A DNA stretch of 64,000 nucleotides. Source: a bacterium (GTDB lineage Bacteria; Babelota; Babeliae; Babelales; Vermiphilaceae). Location of the stretch: the NCBI GenBank assembly GCA_021833825.1, contig JAKBEL010000021.1, positions 525 through 64,524 of the forward strand, written 5' to 3'. The notes beneath the pieces are model-generated. The model was not told where the DNA came from. It did no database searches and worked only from the letters and a program-made list of their open reading frames with translations. Position 1 is the stretch's first letter; each line of letters opens with the position of its first letter. Below, one piece after another: positions 24,548 to 46,604 of the stretch. A program made the position numbers and the translations under genes.

Positions 24548-24801
24548 TATGTCTCTTGGCCCAAAAAATCTGATGGCACATGTCGAATAAATTCAGATGG
24601 CGAAATTCAAGTTTTGCCCAAATTGGGTGAAGTTTTAGTGTGAGTGTGCCCAATGAGCAGAGGCACTTAAAGGTTGTAGAGTCTTTTTTCTCCGCATAAA
24701 AATTGTTTATATGTGATCAATAAAAAAAAATGGACCATTTTCCTTTCACATGGTATTATGGTTATGTTAATAAATATGTATCATGTTATACAGGATCGAT
24801 T

Positions 24802-25932
24802 ATGAAAAAATATATAGTAGCATTATTGCTTATTCAAGCAGTTCAATTGCTCAACGCAGCAGCTGATGAGGAAGATACTCCTGTTAATCCCCATCAGTTA
24901 TTGGGAGAGGCAGTTGCCCATTCTATTCATTTTTTTGCTCCAGCATCTTATTTGGGTGAACCATATGTAAGAAAATTATTATTAGGTGATCGCTTTCCTG
25001 TCCACAATGCGGTTGAACAAGGATCTCTCTTTAGGCTGGCATATTTTGTGTCCAGAGGGTTTGATTTGGAAGAAAGAGATAATATGGCATGGCGCACTCC
25101 ACTTCATAAGGCCTCTTGGTGGCTATTTGATAGAGATGTTCTGCTTTTTCTATTAAAAAAGGGCGCCGATGTTAACGCTCGTAATTATTTTGGGCACACA
25201 CCCATTTTTGAAGTTATTATGCAAGGCAACCCGGGTGGTGCGCAGTTGCTGTTAGAGCATGGTGCTGATCTTAATGCTCGAGATAATAGTGGCCGCACAC
25301 CATTTTTTCATGCGCGCAATGTGCCTACTTTTAGATGGTTACTAGAAAACGGTGCCGATGTTAATGTTCGAGATGATCATGACTGCACACCACTTTTTGG
25401 AGCTATTGAGCGCCTCAGGGGGCGAGATTGTGTTGAATTTTTACTGCAAAATGGTGCCGGTGTTAATGTTCGGGATACTTCTGGTAATACACCGCTTGGT
25501 TTTGCCATTTCAACGTATGGTAGAGCTCGGCTTGACTCAGAGCCTCTCTATTCTATTGTGCAACTATTAGTAGAAAGCGATGCTGATGTTAACGCTCAAG
25601 ATAATAATGGTTGCACTCCATTGCATAAAGCTGCATCTGTAGGGAATCTGCCTTGTGTAAAGCTCTTGCTAAAACAAAAAAATATTAATATTTATCTGAC
25701 GGATGCAGATCAAAAGAGTCCAGCACATTATGCTTTGAGAGGCATCAGAGATTGGAATAAAGATGATTATCTTCAGATTCTACAAGCATTAGCCCAAGAA
25801 GGCGCACCTCTTTCAGATGCTTCTTATCAGAATGATTTTGATCCACTGATTGAAGATGGAATAATTACGCAAGAAGAGTGGACTGATATTATGAGCTGGG
25901 TAGTTGAAGATGTTAAAATGGCGCAAGATTAA
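24802..25932 (+). CDS. Ankyrin-repeat protein with signal-type leader
   Basis: Repeated G.TPL...A...G....V..LL..GADVNA modules (about 7). Start taken at MKKYIVALLLIQAVQLLNAAADE, which is the same as in the downstream paralogue; the ORF-track start is 24730. Confidence 0.85.
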   Translation: MKKYIVALLLIQAVQLLNAAADEEDTPVNPHQLLGEAVAHSIHFFAPASYLGEPYVRKLLLGDRFPVHNAVEQGSLFRLAYFVSRGFDLEERDNMAWRTPLHKASWWLFDRDVLLFLLKKGADVNARNYFGHTPIFEVIMQGNPGGAQLLLEHGADLNARDNSGRTPFFHARNVPTFRWLLENGADVNVRDDHDCTPLFGAIERLRGRDCVEFLLQNGAGVNVRDTSGNTPLGFAISTYGRARLDSEPLYSIVQLLVESDADVNAQDNNGCTPLHKAASVGNLPCVKLLLKQKNINIYLTDADQKSPAHYALRGIRDWNKDDYLQILQALAQEGAPLSDASYQNDFDPLIEDGIITQEEWTDIMSWVVEDVKMAQD

Positions 25933-26004
25933 GAGAGTTCTTGTAAAACTACCATCTCATTATTCTGTTTAAAAAAAGATACATTTTATTATATAAGGTC
26001 GATT

Positions 26005-26685
26005 ATGAAAAAATATATAGTAGCATTATTGCTCATTCAGACAGTTCAATTGCTCAACGCAGCAGCTGATGATGAGGGTCTTTCTGTAGATATTGCGTGT
26101 TTATCAATAAAAAATGGTGCAGATATTGATGCTCGAGATAATTTTGGCCACACACGACTTTTTAAAGCTGTTTTAGGATATGATGAAGATCTCGTTCAGT
26201 CTTTACTAGCAAATGGCGCCGATGTTAATGCTCGGGACGTATCTGGCAACACTCCGCTTATTGCTGCGATTTCTGCTGTTTATCCGGATCAAAATTATTA
26301 TGGAGTTATTCTGGAATTGTTGATAGCAAAAGGCGCCGATATTAACAGTCAGGATAATTATGGTTACACTCCGCTACATCAAGCACTATCTTTTCGATAT
26401 CTGCCTTGCGTGCTACTTCTTTTAGAACAAGAAAATATTAATATTGATCTTAAAAGTAAATATGACGAGAGACCGATAGATTGCGTTTTGAATAGTTACT
26501 TCTGTTGGAAGAAAGATGATTATCTTCAGATTCTACAAGCATTTGCCCAAAGAGGCGCACCTCTTTCAGATGCTTCTTATCAGAATGATTTTGATCGATT
26601 GATTGAAGATGGAATAATTACGCAAGAAGAGCGGGCTGATATTATGAGCTGGGTAGTTGAAGATGTTAAAATGGCGCAAGATTAA
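26005..26685 (+). CDS. Ankyrin-repeat protein, shorter tandem paralogue
   Basis: The leader and the last ~60 aa (KDDYLQILQA..APLSDASYQNDFD.LIEDGIITQEE..DIMSWVVEDVKMAQD) are nearly identical to 24802-25932. The central ANK repeats differ. Confidence 0.85.
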   Translation: MKKYIVALLLIQTVQLLNAAADDEGLSVDIACLSIKNGADIDARDNFGHTRLFKAVLGYDEDLVQSLLANGADVNARDVSGNTPLIAAISAVYPDQNYYGVILELLIAKGADINSQDNYGYTPLHQALSFRYLPCVLLLLEQENINIDLKSKYDERPIDCVLNSYFCWKKDDYLQILQAFAQRGAPLSDASYQNDFDRLIEDGIITQEERADIMSWVVEDVKMAQD

Positions 26686-26776
26686 GAGAGCTCTTGTAAA
26701 ACTACCATTTATATTCGATACTTCATTAAATGAGTTGGAGATATTGTGGGGGCAACTCAAGAGGGGTGTATTGTTA

Positions 26777-26853
26777 TAAAAACGATTGCCTATCATGCAT
26801 GTTGGTCAAACCATAGCGATGACAGATCTTGAACTTATAGATAAAGCATTCAT
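26777..26853 (+). pseudogene. Decayed copy of the 3' end of the MBL-fold hydrolase gene (compare 24437-24520)
   Basis: Translates as KRLPIMHVGQTIAMTDLELIDKA..., versus KRLHIMHVGQTMPLPTSQPPELENDQL at the real gene end. DNA is about 75-80% identical by eye with one gap. It abuts the IS left inverted repeat. Confidence 0.65.
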
Positions 26854-27774
26854 AGAGCCTATCCCTAAATTCCGATCTTATTAAAATTAATGATTGAAGC
26901 CGCAAATTGGGCCATAGCCAAATAGTTTTTAGCATGCTTTGAAAAATGAATTAAAACATCTCTGAATCGGTTCATCCAGGAATGAACTGGCTCAATAAAC
27001 CAACGAGAGTAGCCTAAAGGATTTTTAGGTAAAGTCTTTGAGTTACGAGGATTAGGAGCAATTTTGGGTATGTAATAGAAATTGAATAATATTGTCTTCA
27101 CATGCTGATTGTCGCATGCGGCATCAAGGTGCATTTCTTTATAGCGTGGCATCTTGAGCGTAGATGGAATAGACTTAATGGTTTCAAAATAACTCATGAT
27201 CAGGCTGATTTGATCCTCCAATAGCAAGTCCCAGAATGACTCCATGTTTTTGTGCTATAACACTTATTTTTGTACCCATTTTTCTTCTATCCACTGGGCT
27301 ATTGCCGCTCTTATCTTTACTTAGAGGGCTTTTTCTATGCCCACAATCAATCGATTGCTTATCCAAGGACAATCCATGTATTTCGTCGTATTGTCTTACT
27401 TGATCATCAAATAAATCCTTGAACACATTCACTTTAACCAGCTTTTGAAAAAATCTATGCACTGCGGATGATGACCCAAAGCATTTTTGGCAAAGCATTC
27501 CAGTGAACAGAGGTCTTAAGAAGATAGTAAATTCCGTGAAGCATTCTTGATAAATCTAATGGTGGACGACCAACTTTTTTTGTAAATTCTTTATGTTTTG
27601 ATATGATCGATAGCAACTGAGTTAGCAAATTTTGTGACATCAAAAAGCGATTATTGATGCATTCTTCGTAACATGCTTTTGTTTTCATGGAAAATCTCCC
27701 TCTTGGATTGTGATTACTTCTTGAGGGAGATTATATTACTTTAAGTTATTTTTGGTAATTTAGGGATAGGCTCT
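26854..27774 (-). mobile_element. IS5-family (IS427/IS1031-like) insertion sequence, about 0.92 kb
   Basis: Perfect 18-bp terminal inverted repeats: agagcctatccctaaatt (26854-26871) and aatttagggataggctct (27757-27774). They enclose transposase fragments. Confidence 0.85.
26865..27688 (-). pseudogene. IS5-family transposase split over three reading frames
   Basis: ORFs 27455-27688 (GRPPLDLSRMLHGIYYLLKTSVHWNALP), 27184-27498 (FGSSSAVHRFFQKLVKVNVF...DRRKMGTK) and 26865-27245 (...YSRWFIEPVHSWMNRFR...) are colinear with one IS5-type protein. The first break lies inside the N-terminal domain. Confidence 0.8.
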
Positions 27775-29674: not shown

Positions 29675-30601
29675 ATGTACTATTTTTTGGTTGTGATATT
29701 TTTTTTATTCAATAGTTTAGATGCTTATATCTATCAAGCCATTATTATGAAAAAATGGAATGATCTGCGCAATAGATATCATTATGTTATTGGCTTAGGT
29801 GATTATCATATTAAACATGATAGTGTTATCAAAAAACAGCATAATCAATTAAGGTCATTGCTTACCAATATGGATGCTCAATGCTGTAAGGTTATAACTG
29901 AAGATTTGAGCGTTCCAAATGTTGATGGTAGATGTGGAAGTGGAAAATTTCGTATCAATTCTCGCGGAGGCTTTTTGGGAGGTATTACTGAAAAATGTCG
30001 AAATATGGGGCTTGATGCTGATAATTTTGAGTATCGATATGCACGAGTCTGCTCTATTGGTCCAGTTCTAAAAGATGTCACAAAAGATCCTAAAGCATAT
30101 CCCTCTGTAGTAGGAATATCGGTTGGAGATGTGGTCAAAGAGATTAAAGATGAATCTCAAAAAATTGTAAAGTTTGATGATGGGCGAGTTCTTAATGATT
30201 GGTATCGTGCATCGGTTGAACAGGTTGATAAAAAGATTGTTGCTTATGGTCTGACTGATCATAAGATGAGTATGGCCGATTATTTAGCGAGCAAACAAAA
30301 CAATCCAACGCTATTGGAAAAACTGCTCACCTTTGATCGTGCTCTGCTTGATGCACATATAGTCCACTCGGTTGTCAACACCAATAAAGAGAATATCTGT
30401 TTGCTTGCAGGTGGCTCGCATATTGAACGTGTTTCACAGATGTTGGAAAAAGTTGGCTATAAAAGGGTGTTAGAGTTACCAAAAATCAATGCTCATGCAG
30501 CTCGGATTGAAAGCTCTCTGCAATCTGAAAGTGGGGCAAGCGATAATATGAGTATCCCATATGCTATTGATCTTAGTGGTTTTCAGAATTTGAAGTTATA
30601 A
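29675..30601 (+). CDS. Leader-bearing hypothetical protein, possibly EreA/ChaN/TraB/TIKI-like
   Basis: GGGGAG SD. Motif order VIGLGDYHIKHD ... VITEDL ... LLAGGSHIERV resembles the GxxH...E...GxxH arrangement of that superfamily. Weak, by eye only. Confidence 0.5.
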   Translation: MYYFLVVIFFLFNSLDAYIYQAIIMKKWNDLRNRYHYVIGLGDYHIKHDSVIKKQHNQLRSLLTNMDAQCCKVITEDLSVPNVDGRCGSGKFRINSRGGFLGGITEKCRNMGLDADNFEYRYARVCSIGPVLKDVTKDPKAYPSVVGISVGDVVKEIKDESQKIVKFDDGRVLNDWYRASVEQVDKKIVAYGLTDHKMSMADYLASKQNNPTLLEKLLTFDRALLDAHIVHSVVNTNKENICLLAGGSHIERVSQMLEKVGYKRVLELPKINAHAARIESSLQSESGASDNMSIPYAIDLSGFQNLKL

Positions 30602-31670
30602 TAACAGGATTAAGTATATGATATGCTTTGTTTCCGTGGGGGAAAGATGAAGCTTGAGCAGCGCCTCTACGTGGTTCATTAGGTGTAGAGATTGTCAATG
30701 AGGCATTGCTCGATGAGGATGAAGAATTAAGTGTTTTTTGCAATGATGATGCTTGAAATATTGCATTCCCAGTGAATGGCGATGCGTTAGGCTTTGTTTG
30801 CTCTATCCTGGGAGAGTTCCGTATTTCTTTTATTATTTTGTTAGCAGCTTCTGTTGCAGATGTTTCAATTTTTACGTTCAATGCAGCGACATTTTGCGTG
30901 ATCTCAGTAATGCGTTCATTCTGTTGCTCCTGCATCTGATGTATTGTATCGAGTAAATTTTTAAGCTTTTCTTGGTGCTCAGCGCTTGCTTTTTTTTGGT
31001 ATTCCTTAAGACCCTCTGCAATAACAGTCAAATTCACCCCTTGTTTATCTATCATTTCCTGTATTTGTTTAGTTAGATTTAAATTTTGTGTAGTTTTCTC
31101 TTCTAAAGATGCAATCTGAGATGACTGTTGATTTTGCGTTAGAGAAATTTGTTTTGTTTGGGCTATCGATTGTTGATGATTTTCTTCAACCGTTTTTTTT
31201 AATGACTTAAGTTTTTCAGCCTGTTCCTCATTATACTGTATCTGTTGTTTGTTTTGCTCTATCACCATGTTTTTTAGAGCATTTATTTCACTTTTATACC
31301 AAAGCCGAGTCATTCCAGCGACAAATATTGTATAACCGGTTCTTTTGCTAAAAAGAAAATGTGCAATGCCTGAAACAGCTACTGTTGTGACGACGTCATG
31401 TTTGTTATCTTTTACCCAATTACAACTAGAGTTAATTATTTGTTGGTAATATTCTGGGGTTAAAAAATGTGGTACGGTTTGTGCTATGCTAGCAAAAATA
31501 TTAGTGGCAAACTTTAGATTAACATTTTGTGTATCATCAGAACATGATATATTAAAATGCGCGCATACCAAAAATATTAAAAAAAATAGCATCACTTTTT
31601 TTTCTTTTAAAAGAGTGTTTAATAAGAAATTACATTGTAAAATGTTACTATAACATATTAAATAAATCAA
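30573..31670 (-). CDS. Membrane-hairpin plus Gln-rich coiled-coil protein (family member 1)
   Basis: Leader (start may be the Met at 31592). Small-residue hairpin VVTTVAVSGIAHFLF-SKRTGY-TIFVAGMTRLWY, then a ~170-aa heptad-like Q/E/K-rich region and a Ser-rich tail. Confidence 0.65.
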   Translation of the reverse strand: MIYLICYSNILQCNFLLNTLLKEKKVMLFFLIFLVCAHFNISCSDDTQNVNLKFATNIFASIAQTVPHFLTPEYYQQIINSSCNWVKDNKHDVVTTVAVSGIAHFLFSKRTGYTIFVAGMTRLWYKSEINALKNMVIEQNKQQIQYNEEQAEKLKSLKKTVEENHQQSIAQTKQISLTQNQQSSQIASLEEKTTQNLNLTKQIQEMIDKQGVNLTVIAEGLKEYQKKASAEHQEKLKNLLDTIHQMQEQQNERITEITQNVAALNVKIETSATEAANKIIKEIRNSPRIEQTKPNASPFTGNAIFQASSLQKTLNSSSSSSNASLTISTPNEPRRGAAQASSFPHGNKAYHILNPVIITSNSENH

Positions 31671-31727
31671 CTTTGCATTAAAATAGACTTTTTTTGTTAT
31701 TTGAAAAAGTCTATATGAAAACGGCTC

Positions 31728-32510
31728 TTAAAGGCTCTCGTTAAGCGCTCTATTTTTGAATTGATCCTTGTCGTTGCGCTTTTCATTGAGAGGATTTTTT
31801 GATAGCTCTTTTAATATGTCTGCAGTAAATTTTGAATAAGCTTTTTCTGTAGTAGTCAATAACTTTGTGGTTGCATCTTTTAAATCTTCTGTTTGATGAG
31901 CTGATTCTGACATTATCTCTTGTAGATTAACAACCTCTTTTACGATATGTGCAGATCGTTCTGTGGCATCTGTAATCTCTTTTTTTATCTCTACAAGTAT
32001 TTCAGTCTGCTCCGATATGCTCTTGGCAATTGAGTTGAGCGAGCCATTTTGTTCTTGAATGTCTTTGCTTATTTGGTCAAGTGATGCATTTTGGTTTTCT
32101 AGGGTAGTTGAAATTTTTTGGAACTCAGCTTTGTGCGATTTATTATACTCTTCAACTATATTGAGTAGGCTTTGAGCTGCCCCATCAACGTTTGCTTGAC
32201 TATCTTCTAGATCTTTAAAACTTTGATTCAATTCTTTATCTAATTTTGAATCTTGCATGCATTTATATAATATAAAGCATCCACTTAGTCCACATGCACC
32301 TATAAGATATTTTTTATCCCATTTACATGCAGAGGCTGCAGCTCCAAGCCCTATCATTGATCCTGCAATAATAGGTGTTTGATGCTCCACTAGCCATTCG
32401 GACCAATCCATTTTTTCTTCTTGAAAGATATCAGAGTTCAATTCTTCCATTGCAGTAAGGTGTGTTGACATATTGAATAAAACAAGAGAAAGCATTAGAT
32501 GTTTGTCCAT
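31728..32510 (-). CDS. Membrane-hairpin plus coiled-coil protein (family member 2)
   Basis: Leader. Hairpin PIIAGSMIGLGAAASAC-KWDKKY-LIGACGLSGCFILY, followed by a long helical or coiled-coil region. Confidence 0.65.
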   Translation of the reverse strand: MDKHLMLSLVLFNMSTHLTAMEELNSDIFQEEKMDWSEWLVEHQTPIIAGSMIGLGAAASACKWDKKYLIGACGLSGCFILYKCMQDSKLDKELNQSFKDLEDSQANVDGAAQSLLNIVEEYNKSHKAEFQKISTTLENQNASLDQISKDIQEQNGSLNSIAKSISEQTEILVEIKKEITDATERSAHIVKEVVNLQEIMSESAHQTEDLKDATTKLLTTTEKAYSKFTADILKELSKNPLNEKRNDKDQFKNRALNESL

Positions 32511-32669
32511 GATATTATTTTCGTTATGATAAGGTTATACTATATCGACTATTATTATTTATATTATTTATATAATGCAGAATAATATTACTATATAAAA
32601 TCTTTTGCCGCAATTCTTTTGTGCAATTTTGTATTTTTCAAAAAAGAAAAAATTGCGATATGGAATTTG

Positions 32670-33920
32670 TTATGCATCTGCGCAGGGCCGGTAATGGGTT
32701 ATTATTTTTTCAAGTACAAGTGCGCTGGCAGGTGCGATAGCAAGTAGTGCTAATGGTATCAATTTTTTAATCTGGTTGTGTAATCGATCTGGTGCTTTAA
32801 AATGTTTAATTTCTGGTATTGCATCAAATGAATCTATGGTATTCTCTTGCCCATGATCAAGTGCAAATCTCTTTAATATCGTTTGATGTTCCTGTTCTAA
32901 TTCTTGGGCAAATAGCTGTTGTTGTTGTAATAGCTTTTCACGCTTACGCTTTAGCTTTGCTTCCGCTTTTGCTCTTTCATGCTCTATCTCATTTTCACAT
33001 TTCATCTCTAGCTGTGCAAATTTCTCTTGAATGAGTGGTTCGTACTCAGCTGGAGGTGCAAGCTCTATTGTAACAGGTTCATCTGTTATGAATGGTTCTG
33101 ATTCAAGATTGACCTGTATTTCTTGTGCGTGCGCAATTGCTTGTAACATCTTTTGAATATTGGTTTGTGTATGATGAGCGCTTGCAATAATTGAGCTCTC
33201 TATTTTGGGTAATTGGTTGCCTAGAGCCGTTATATTGCTCTGCATGAGATGTGATTGAGTCTGAGCAAATTGCCCAACGCCAATAATTTCTTGATGCAGT
33301 TTAATAAAGTTTTCGGTTGACAGGCTGCTCGTTTGGGTTATCTGTGCAAGAATTTCTTGTTTGTGTTCTGCAAGAGCAAGGTGCAATCGAGCACTCTCTT
33401 TAGATATGTGGGCGCGTATTTTGATCTCATGTGCAAAAAGCGCATAGCGCAGATTTTTATCAAGAAGGGTCATCTTTTTTTGTATGTCCTGTTGGTTCTG
33501 TTGTGCTTGGCTATAGAGTATGCGAAATTTTTTATCGATTCTTCGTTCAGCGGCATCTTGATGATCAAGTAACGTATTAGTGCTATCAACAATCAGTCTT
33601 TTTGTCTCTAGGTCAGATGCATACCAATATAATGTGCATCCGCATAATCCAATTGCTAAGGCATTAGTTGGAGAGATGCCCTTTTGATGTAGTTTATAAC
33701 ATGCAAAGCTTGCAGCCAATGATGTTGCGCATCCGGTTGCCAAAAGAGGCTTCCAATGATTGTAGGTCCATTGGCCAATATTTTTCCACCAGATTATTCT
33801 GTGCATGTTGTATTCAAGGCGATCTGTCCATTGATCAATTGGATGGTCATTTTCTCCCGGCTGTATAGCAGATGGTAGAAGAATGCATAATATGGTGAGG
33901 TATAACCTTGATATATACAA
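32670..33920 (-). CDS. Membrane-hairpin plus coiled-coil protein (family member 3) with extra C-terminal TM
   Basis: TTG start 8 nt after AAGGGGG. Hairpin PLLATGCATSLAASFACY-KLHQKGISPTN-ALAIGLCGCTLYWYA, a long coiled-coil, then C-terminal LIPLALLAIAPASALVL. Confidence 0.65.
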   Translation of the reverse strand: MYISRLYLTILCILLPSAIQPGENDHPIDQWTDRLEYNMHRIIWWKNIGQWTYNHWKPLLATGCATSLAASFACYKLHQKGISPTNALAIGLCGCTLYWYASDLETKRLIVDSTNTLLDHQDAAERRIDKKFRILYSQAQQNQQDIQKKMTLLDKNLRYALFAHEIKIRAHISKESARLHLALAEHKQEILAQITQTSSLSTENFIKLHQEIIGVGQFAQTQSHLMQSNITALGNQLPKIESSIIASAHHTQTNIQKMLQAIAHAQEIQVNLESEPFITDEPVTIELAPPAEYEPLIQEKFAQLEMKCENEIEHERAKAEAKLKRKREKLLQQQQLFAQELEQEHQTILKRFALDHGQENTIDSFDAIPEIKHFKAPDRLHNQIKKLIPLALLAIAPASALVLEKIITHYRPCADA

Positions 33921-45590: not shown

Positions 45591-45656
45591 TTCTTTTTTC
45601 TGTTATTACTACACTTCTTCATATTTGTTTATCTAAGTTTATTGCGGAGAATTGTT

Positions 45657-46604
45657 ATGAATATCTTTTGTAAAGGCTCTGTTTTATTGAGTCTTTTGAT
45701 AAGTATAAGTGCGCCTGTAAAGGCTGGAGATAGTTCTTCTTGGCCGTATTATGTTGGTGTAGGAGTTGCTGGGATTGCTGTAGGGGTAGGCGGAACTCTT
45801 CTTGTAACTGATCAGGTAAATCGATCTATTGATCATGCAATTGAAAAATTAACAGTTGATGCAGAAGCTGGTCTGACAAGAGTTGTTGATCATGCAACTG
45901 AAAAATTGACAACTGAAGCAGAAGAACAAGCAGAACATCTTGTTACATTTTTCCTTGGAGAGAAAAAGGGAGATGAAAATATGAATAGTGTTGATTGCAG
46001 TAATGTTGTGGCAGCAGAAAGAGGTGGGTTGGTTTCACCGCTTGAAAAGGTTGCAGAGATAGCAAAAAATACTATTGAATCATCGGGGCATCAGGTTGCT
46101 ATTGATTTTACAACTATGATGGAAGAATCTGGTCAAAAGATTGTATCAGATTTTTCGCAGGTTGTAGAGGCGTCAAGCCCTAAAGTAGCCGTTGATTTTT
46201 CTAAAGCTATGGAAGAAGTGGGCCAAAATGTAACAGCAGATTTGGCCAAAAATATTGTGCAGTCAGGTAATCAACTAACCGTTGGTTTGGCTCAAAATGT
46301 TGCAAGGATGATGCTCTCCTATACATTAGGTCTTTTTGGTGCATTTTTTGCCTATAAGCAGATTGTCGATTATTTTGCATCTCAAGAAAAAATTGATCAT
46401 CTTGATATAGTTGCTCAAGAACAGGTGATGCCCCTGTTGCCACAAGGTAAGCTTCTTCAGGCTTTAGAAAGGCGGGAGGCGGCTCTCATTAATGCAGAGC
46501 GGAAACATCTAAAGCAAAAGCAGAGCAGAGCATTTTATCTAGCAGGATGTGGGTCGCTCACCTTTGCCGTAGCTTGCGGCCTCTGTTCTTATTGGATTCA
46601 GTAA
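45657..46604 (+). CDS. Leader-bearing protein with glycine-zipper TM, internal helical repeats and C-terminal TMs
   Basis: ATG at 45657 (MNIFCKGSVLLSLLISISAPVKA). YYVGVGVAGIAVGVGGTLLV. Repeats IDHAIEKLTVDAE / VDHATEKLTTEAE and VAIDFTTMMEESGQ / VAVDFSKAMEEVGQ. Confidence 0.6.
   Translation: MNIFCKGSVLLSLLISISAPVKAGDSSSWPYYVGVGVAGIAVGVGGTLLVTDQVNRSIDHAIEKLTVDAEAGLTRVVDHATEKLTTEAEEQAEHLVTFFLGEKKGDENMNSVDCSNVVAAERGGLVSPLEKVAEIAKNTIESSGHQVAIDFTTMMEESGQKIVSDFSQVVEASSPKVAVDFSKAMEEVGQNVTADLAKNIVQSGNQLTVGLAQNVARMMLSYTLGLFGAFFAYKQIVDYFASQEKIDHLDIVAQEQVMPLLPQGKLLQALERREAALINAERKHLKQKQSRAFYLAGCGSLTFAVACGLCSYWIQ

Follow-up and report, generated by a model that had tools for sequence, protein, structure and literature searches.

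A tandem trio of leader-bearing, predicted hairpin-anchored helical proteins with an exchanged cassette in a Dependentiae genome

The window analyzed here is a stretch of 64,000 nucleotides from contig JAKBEL010000021.1 (assembly GCA_021833825.1). It belongs to a Dependentiae (TM6) genome of 1.23 Mb in 23 contigs, which is 96% complete and has about 37% G+C. Dependentiae is a widespread phylum of obligate intracellular parasites of protists. On its minus strand the window carries three tandem open reading frames (ORFs) of 416, 260 and 365 amino acids (aa), which we named C, B and A in the order in which they are read (Table 1). A first-pass annotation of the window had already listed them, and we found them at the same positions. 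We propose that the three proteins are Sec-exported rods anchored by a membrane hairpin, that a host-facing site is favored over a purely periplasmic one, and that they resemble the inclusion membrane (Inc) proteins of Chlamydia in design only. To this reading as a whole we give about an even chance. A host-facing site is favored in part because a cassette spanning parts of B and A recombines and is hypervariable, a signature of exposure to an antagonist, and because the same layout precedes a MavL-like ADP-ribosylhydrolase in this genome.

To our knowledge, almost nothing is known of how Dependentiae act on their hosts. The phylum has none of the injection systems of Chlamydia, Legionella and Rickettsia. 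A module made of a leader and a weak hairpin would offer a concrete, testable handle on how proteins are placed at the host interface. Further, the replacement of a cassette in nearly identical backgrounds suggests a strain-level arms race that can be read from the metagenomes of an uncultured phylum. If the rods are periplasmic, the locus would be an ordinary lineage-specific envelope family.

C, B and A share one layout

All three proteins display a leader with a hydrophobic core, followed by a Trp motif, a two-arm hairpin and a long helix. The Trp is located 8-12 residues ahead of arm 1, in the sequences NWVKDNKHD (A), DWSEWLVEHQ (B) and GQWTYNHWKP (C). The arms are uncharged and 13-18 aa long (16+13 in A, 18+15 in B and 18+16 in C), and Gly, Ala, Ser, Cys and Thr account for about 48-62% of their residues. 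The turns between them are basic and comprise 5-11 aa, namely SKRTG in A, KWDKK in B and KLHQKGISPTN in C; an acidic stretch precedes the hairpin of B. The leader and the Trp-preceded small-residue hairpin that the first-pass annotation had described were thus seen in all three proteins, as was the basic turn, although its lengths range over 5-11 aa and not the 6-11 aa it had given. When scored on the summed Hessa scale, the arms reached +4.6 or worse, and some of them missed the cut-off of +6. They match only the least hydrophobic helices of the AtpB, c subunit and amino-acid permease of the same genome.

The helical regions are 150-255 aa long and enriched in Gln, Glu and Lys. Gln makes up 14.4% of the region in A, 7.3% in B and 11.7% in C, compared with 4.7% of the proteome, and Gly plus Pro 1.3-3.9%, compared with 9.4%. 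Heptad periodicity, measured against shuffled sequences, was strong in B (z=5.4) and patchy in A (z=1.8) and C (z=1.5). Therefore, of the heptad-like, Q/E/K-rich helix annotated for each protein, the composition was recovered in all three, but clear heptads in B only.

For B, AlphaFold2 predicted a hairpin of two helices (aa 47-63 and 67-84) followed by one long helix at aa 89-237, with a predicted local distance difference test (pLDDT) score above 90 over about aa 120-190. The model of C, built from a 4-sequence alignment, was all-helical with a pLDDT of 44 and was unusable for a fold search. Around aa 267-290, a linker that is acidic and contains Pro breaks the helix of C. The additional C-terminal hydrophobic segment that had been noted for the third protein was present in C (Table 1). 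As for A, its start is most likely the GTG or ATG at 31595/31592, giving about 339 aa, rather than the TTG at 31670; these codons lie directly ahead of the hydrophobic leader.

Table 1. Features of the C-B-A locus (positions are those of the window; arms and turn of each hairpin are separated by slashes)
Feature	Position	Strand	Description
Gene C, 416 aa	32670..33920	-	ORF; conserved member of the cluster: leader, hairpin, juxtamembrane motif, helix, C-terminal hydrophobic segment
C hairpin, aa 58-101	33618..33749	-	PLLATGCATSLAASFACY / KLHQKGISPTN / ALAIGLCGCTLYWYAS; preceded by the WWKNIGQWTYNHWK motif
C juxtamembrane helix, aa 102-135	33516..33617	-	Motif SD-ETK-LIVDSTN-LLDHQDA, seen when 9 members of the family are aligned
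C helical region, aa 102-357	32850..33617	-	Gln/Glu-rich by composition; AlphaFold2 helices at aa 84-196, 202-266 and 291-357 (pLDDT 44)
C C-terminal hydrophobic segment, aa 383-408	32697..32774	-	Hydropathy scan; kept in orthologues and in P0007
Gene B, 260 aa	31728..32510	-	ORF; leader, hairpin, one long coiled-coil helix
B hairpin, aa 45-82	32265..32378	-	TPIIAGSMIGLGAAASAC / KWDKK / YLIGACGLSGCFILY; small-xxx-small faces
B rod, aa 89-237	31800..32246	-	Predicted single helix of ~149 residues with strong heptads (AlphaFold2; heptad z=5.4)
Gene A, ORF of 365 aa	30573..31670	-	Leader, hairpin, Gln-rich helix, Ser/Asn-rich tail
A hairpin, ORF aa 93-125	31296..31394	-	VVTTVAVSGIAHFLFS / KR(TG) / YTIFVAGMTRLWY; preceded by CNWVKDNKHD
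A helical region, ORF aa 123-296	30783..31304	-	Gln 14.4%, Glu 12.1%, Lys 11.5%; heptads patchy (z=1.8)
Hypervariable cassette, 1.48 kb	30787..32262	.	B rod, B-A spacer, and leader, hairpin and rod of A; blastn breakpoints against L004

A cassette within the conserved locus has been replaced by recombination

To analyze the conservation of the locus, we compared the window with the syntenic metagenomic contigs L004, L006/L007 and L008, which gave four loci in total. The synteny covers a FolC-like gene, atpB, a fused c subunit gene, a GT4 glycosyltransferase gene and the cysK-like gene, and on the far side a convergent gene for a 308-aa protein. C-B-A was found between the cysK-like gene and the 308-aa gene in 4 of 4 loci, and the leader, hairpin and helix in 12 of 12 proteins, the leaders of L006 being visible only if upstream starts are allowed. 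The shared layout appears to exceed chance, because the same three-gene arrangement recurs in the three further contigs although B and A are only about 20% identical there.

The flanking proteins are well conserved. The CysK-like protein of the window is 91% identical to that of L004 and 90% identical to that of L006, and the 308-aa protein 88% and 74%, respectively. In B, the leader and hairpin (N-terminal 84 aa) are 86% identical to L004 and 41% to L006, and the remainder 25% and 32%, whereas the leader and hairpin of A are 21% identical to L004 and 49% to L006. At the DNA level, window and L004 share 91% identity down to position 32263, no similarity is detectable from 32262 to 30787, and 85% identity resumes inside the Ser/Asn-rich tail of A. 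Since the dS (synonymous divergence) of the flanks is only 0.3-0.5 while the DNA of the cassette is unalignable, neutral drift cannot account for the difference, and recombination has put a divergent allele in place of the cassette. The allele types are also incongruent with the flanks, in that the leader and hairpin of A are nearer to those of the more distant L006 than to those of L004.

C differs from this pattern. It is 88%, 69% and 61% identical to its orthologues in L004, L006 and L008, and its hairpin region is nearly invariant across the four orthologues and kept in distant relatives. Compared with L004, its dN/dS (ratio of nonsynonymous to synonymous substitution) is 0.19, with 0.03-0.21 for the neighboring genes, and C is under purifying selection.

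Two further points concern B. The orthologue at L004:10001-10801 has a second copy of the hairpin, FIMALGAASSLYKWDKRPIIISSAITSGLLIYKW, right behind the first, an intragenic duplication of the module. A polymorphic toxin/immunity cassette was also considered, given the conserved N-terminal part, variable C-terminal part and variable downstream gene, and was rejected, because what varies here amounts to an ordinary coiled coil and the gene downstream retains a C-terminus of its own.

The layout recurs elsewhere in the genome, once ahead of a MavL-like domain

The layout is common to at least seven proteins of the genome and to a MavL-like enzyme. This enzyme (G000:C20:14406-16244, locus L049) has 612 aa, with a Sec-type leader and a hairpin, LALPVGGLGLAYVAY / KAENPKIK / YPAAFASATAFMYPFL, followed by a MavL-like ADP-ribosylhydrolase domain that matches PF16062 with an E value of 1.5e-103. 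Of 80 genomes from the same taxonomic family, 17 contain MavL-like homologues. Among the 11 N-termini that we read, most begin with a hydrophobic, leader-like segment, and the L042 protein has a leader, a WW motif and a small-residue transmembrane segment. The sole characterized member of the MavL family is a Legionella effector that acts on host ubiquitin (PMC10951314).

A second family with the same leader and hairpin and a helical body of 250-320 aa is encoded at C2:25291-26541, C22:130286-131608 and C13:236-1429 (contig:position), and C19:100223-101296 is probably a fourth member. These proteins are 27-36% identical to one another. Their profile showed no relationship to that of the C family and found no member in 79 other genomes of the same taxonomic family. 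The first-pass annotation had seen the cluster as an expanding family of host-interface or envelope proteins; a fast-evolving tandem set, the profile links described below and additional proteins of the same layout fit that view, with the qualification that the second family is unrelated.

A 336-aa orphan at G000:C10:21511-22521 has a leader, several Ala/Gly-rich, weakly hydrophobic segments and a helical tail, and could represent another variation on this design. In the window itself, the gene at 45657-46604 had been assigned a related layout. This did not hold, as profile comparison with the C family gave a probability of 0.4% and the layout is different. The 320-aa protein encoded there (45642-46604, plus strand) has a leader, one Gly-zipper-like transmembrane segment, YYVGVGVAGIAVGVGGTLLV, and two distant C-terminal hydrophobic segments. 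Its acidic helical region contains the internal repeats VDHAIEKLT/VDHATEKLT and VAIDFT/VAVDFS, and it has no family match.

A host-facing site is weighed against the periplasm

We modeled the placement of the proteins from their sequences and the usual topology rules. Sec export and removal of the leader would leave the mature N-terminus outside the cytoplasm. Both arms of the hairpin would then insert together, the basic turn staying on the side of origin, so that rod and N-terminus would share the extracytoplasmic side; we place the rod there because a predicted cleavable leader precedes a hairpin whose turn is basic. The rods, most clearly that of B, would pair or oligomerize as coiled coils of about 22 nm, and the small-xxx-small faces of the arms may pack together. 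C would serve as a conserved scaffold, and B and A as exposed, variable members whose rod cassette is swapped between strains; the replacement itself is seen in the sequences, and exposure would be its selective cause. The host-facing site may be the bacterial surface, outer-membrane vesicles or a host membrane, so that an Inc-like mode of working would be reached by a Sec-dependent route.

Besides the recombining cassette and the MavL-like enzyme, we favor a host-facing site because the arms are marginally hydrophobic, as in effectors that integrate into host membranes (PMC6110835). In the cultured Dependentiae C. destructans, signal peptides are found on 44% of coding sequences and on 78% of ankyrin proteins, and this organism sheds vesicles in the food vacuole, which agrees with a host-facing reading (PMC6561590).

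The strongest competitor, possible but clearly less probable in our judgment, is that the proteins are rods of the inner-membrane envelope. They would pass the membrane twice with the help of Sec/YidC, and the coiled coil would span the periplasm as a spacer, tether or scaffold, C being held C-terminally as well; fast divergence would then reflect low constraint on coiled coils. Such a location is the default fate of a leader plus two hydrophobic segments with a basic turn. It is also supported by the B rod, whose 149 residues, or about 22 nm, correspond to periplasmic dimensions, by inner-membrane residents such as the c subunit, whose small-residue hairpins are similarly marginal, by the conservation of C (dN/dS 0.19), and by the failure to find a type III secretion system (T3SS) or a VirB4-type type IV secretion system (T4SS) in the genome. 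However, drift cannot explain why DNA identity falls abruptly from 91% to nothing inside a single gene, nor why the alleles are incongruent with their flanks, a pattern typical of antagonist-exposed loci. Further, the same layout carries the MavL-like ADP-ribosylhydrolase, whose characterized relative acts on host ubiquitin. We know of no periplasmic substrate for a MavL-like ADP-ribosylhydrolase.

Several observations speak against the host-facing proposal or weaken its basis. The leader of C has a poor cleavage site, and the basic residues ahead of its last hydrophobic segment suit a cytoplasmic rod better than an external one. The c subunit of the ATP synthase, an inner-membrane hairpin, is equally marginal in this genome, so retention in the inner membrane is compatible with the weak arms. 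No route across the outer membrane is known, and the two secretins of the genome have no assigned substrates. The leaders, arms and heptads were called by simple in-house scans, hydrophobicity being a summed Hessa scale with a cut-off of +6. A crude scan for the architecture found no clear member in a 400-kb sample of another genus (G011), a scan that also misses A and three of the second-family proteins in the genome of the window. When run against 79 further species representatives from this taxonomic family, two of which share the genus, the C-family profile described below found no member. Finally, the links of B and A to C depend on short, compositionally biased segments, and the domain model of the C hairpin gave E values of 0.017-13 with the A and B members, with no significant recovery.

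Extending the host-facing proposal, we speculated that in Dependentiae, which have neither T3SS nor T4SS, a two-step, Sec-dependent route plants hairpin-anchored proteins in host-facing membranes, with the leader and weak hairpin as a portable anchor, joined in this genome to coiled-coil rods and to the MavL-like enzyme, and C-B-A as an antigen-like set that is a convergent counterpart of Inc. We regard this broader idea as doubtful, a little more so than the inner-membrane alternative.

C belongs to a small family, to which B and A may be related

In agreement with the earlier remark that the three proteins share little primary sequence, pairwise BLASTP among A, B and C gave E values of 0.004-0.005 at best, and phmmer of the three against all ORFs of the genome gave no cross-matches and no paralogues. 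A search of the genome contigs with A likewise found nothing, and word-indexed homologue searches returned positional orthologues only, the sole database relatives of B.

For C, a profile search of a library of 1.84e9 proteins found P0007 (E 2.7e-121) and P0008-P0011 (E 1e-5 to 5e-4). All five have a leader and two arms, together with a W-x-Y-x-H/N-x-K motif and a DEEIKNLIIDGTN-like one. C itself has the features of this family: the W-x-Y-x-H/N-x-K motif, two arms made up of small residues that end in Tyr/aromatic-Lys, and an acidic juxtamembrane helix that is conserved. The hidden Markov model (HMM) of the C domain covers 92 positions and includes that helix. Apart from P0008 itself, word-indexed searches with a 9-sequence C profile recovered nothing but the L005/L014 slot gene. 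The family is small, has its place in the slot downstream of the cysK-like gene, and is known so far from Dependentiae-like contigs only.

We then compared profiles of the three proteins with hhalign. Among the 4-sequence profiles of C, B and A, probabilities were 2-23%, equal to the control level. We also used a broader C profile (A4), widened by the distant relatives from the protein library; it includes P0012, the slot gene of L005, which is itself linked to the C family only marginally. A4 aligned with the B profile at 80.6% (E 1.3e-5, 70 columns), spanning the Trp motif, the entire hairpin and the juxtamembrane helix, and with the A profile at 57.6% (E 1e-4, 46 columns), spanning the Trp motif, arm 1 and the turn. 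As a control, an unrelated hairpin family from this genome (A5) gave 2%, 27% (leaders only) and 1%. The comparison among the three that had been suggested earlier was therefore at background in its first form and gave links of B and A to C with the broad profile. In addition, phmmer gave weak cross-position matches between A-slot and B-slot proteins of different genomes. These alignments make B a probable, and A a possible, tandem duplicate that diverged from a C-like ancestor.

More distant relatives contain a single small, leader-bearing gene in the slot, which follows acetyl-CoA synthetase in L013 and L014, and acetyl-CoA synthetase plus a large membrane protein in L005. P0011 occupies this cysK-like/Acs slot. 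In L005/L014, the gene in the slot matches the C domain HMM only marginally, and its family membership is based mainly on synteny. Since the slot holds a single gene in distant relatives and P0011 is a supported member of the C family, the three-gene cluster appears to be a local expansion.

These results bear on the possibility that A, B and C are unrelated orphans, whose similar layout would be a by-product of the abundance of leader-bearing orphans in Dependentiae, with no common origin or function. The near-absence of BLASTP and phmmer matches, initial hhalign probabilities (20-23%) no better than those of the negative controls and the high share of signal peptides in C. destructans (44% of coding sequences; PMC6561590) are what it would predict. 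We consider it improbable. Each of the 12 positional orthologues retains the layout, even where identity is only about 20%. Against the broader profile, the Trp motif, the lengths of the arms and the basic turn line up in register (81% and 58%), and there are matches between A and B slots across genomes. The single slot gene of related genera, with P0011 as a significant member of the C family and P0012/P0013 as marginal ones, likewise fits a tandem expansion.

Comparison with known systems

We searched A, B and C against Pfam (E<=1), NCBIfam and PADLOC, and obtained only sub-threshold matches to generic coiled coils (ZorA tail, SMC, DUF1664 and keratin). The B profile against Protein Data Bank (PDB) sequences gave MCP chains at E 0.33-0.97, nothing meaningful, and Foldseek of the B model against the PDB gave nothing at E<=0.001. 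A clear homology to MCP signaling domains or LemA, named beforehand as what would overturn the first-pass interpretation, was thus not found in any of these searches. The three proteins appear to be an undescribed, lineage-specific set that no known family matches by sequence or fold. A two-transmembrane effector of a conflict system (SLATT) was also considered and rejected: for A and B, PADLOC returned no more than coiled-coil noise (ZorA tail, JetC), for C it returned no match, and the neighbors are housekeeping genes.

The first-pass annotation had pointed to glycine-zipper two-transmembrane domains as a resemblance of the hairpin. Like SlyB and the Rickettsia 17-kDa antigen, A, B and C are predicted to be Sec-exported and have a short small-residue hairpin; they differ in having no model match, no conserved lipobox and another downstream domain. 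If they were outer-membrane proteins of this type, the inner leaflet of that membrane would take up the hairpin, leaving the rod in the periplasm. The small-residue-rich arms of 13-18 aa with small-xxx-small faces, the Sec leader and the marginal hydrophobicity suit this explanation, which we nevertheless hold to be very unlikely. Six isolated hairpins gave no match to Gly-zipper or Rick_17kDa_Anti models in Pfam even at E<=10, so the resemblance was not borne out. Only A has a Cys after the leader (NIS-C), and this is not kept in L006, L008 or L004. The downstream long helix is also unlike the fold of those families.

Inc proteins are characterized by a bilobed hydrophobic domain, coiled-coil enrichment and clustered genes, with helices of 15-32 residues (Dehoux et al. 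2011, PMC3048545). A, B and C share with them two close N-terminal hydrophobic helices joined by a short turn, a long helical or coiled-coil C-terminal part, tandem gene hot spots with little conservation between members, and an obligate intracellular bacterium as the carrier. The bilobed domain is present in all three, with arms of 13-18 aa and turns of 5-11 aa, the arms being marginally hydrophobic and at the short end of the Inc range, with no sequence match. Unlike Inc proteins, which have a type III secretion signal, they carry a Sec-type leader, and the genome belongs to another phylum and has no T3SS. PF00771 (SctV/FlhA) was not found in this 96%-complete genome, control genomes being positive, and PF03135 (VirB4) was not found in it either; the genome does encode two secretins. 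The Inc hallmark that had been annotated therefore stands as a functional analogy of design, a hairpin plus a coiled coil, and fails as an identity. That A, B and C are true chlamydial-type Inc proteins or other T3SS/T4SS substrates can be practically dismissed in spite of the bilobed domain, coiled coil and gene clustering described for inc genes (PMC3048545), because SctV/FlhA and VirB4 are missing from this Dependentiae genome, and in view of the Sec-type N-termini and the lack of any Inc family model among the Pfam matches at E<=1.

In membrane-integrating T3SS/T4SS effectors, weak hydrophobic segments are described as the means by which the proteins avoid being inserted into the inner membrane of the bacterium (Krampen et al. 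2018, PMC6110835). The hydrophobic segments of A, B and C are similarly weak by the inner-membrane standard of their genome. The effectors avoid Sec/SRP, whereas A, B and C carry a Sec leader in a genome with neither system.

Streptococcal M proteins are hypervariable coiled-coil surface proteins anchored by an LPXTG sortase. They are alike in combining a conserved anchor and export part with a rod that is unalignable between close strains and exchanged by recombination. The differences are the LPXTG sortase anchor, in place of the N-terminal hairpin seen here, and the carrier, here a diderm intracellular parasite, in which surface exposure of the rods is a prediction.

Gene neighborhood of the cluster

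The spacers are AT-rich, with 159 bp between C and B and about 135 bp between B and A. Each opens with an AT-rich inverted repeat immediately past the preceding stop codon, and C, B and A are therefore probably separate transcription units. A scan for consensus promoters and terminators in the region gave fewer sites than in shuffled sequence.

The flanking genes are housekeeping and ankyrin-repeat genes. The cluster had been described as adjoining an insertion sequence (IS), which proved inaccurate: the putative IS relic at 26854-27774 is 2.8 kb and two genes away, outside the variable segment. Together with this relic, a pair of ankyrin genes (window 24730-27774) is missing from the syntenic L006 and L008, where a gene for an MBL-fold hydrolase lies directly beside a gene for a propeller-like protein of 549 or 535 aa. 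The ankyrin pair is thus a recent insertion in the lineage of the window.

In L005 (14145-18786), genes for an 873-aa polytopic membrane protein and acetyl-CoA synthetase separate the cysK-like gene from the slot gene, and because of these extra genes we regard the slot region as a hot spot of gene gain and loss.

On the other side, the convergent gene at 29675-30601 (plus strand) encodes the leader-bearing protein of 308 aa, which has GDYH...GGSH motifs and no family match. This gene is the constant right-hand neighbor of the hairpin slot in L004-L006, L008 and L014, that is, in every locus that reaches that far, more distant genera included.

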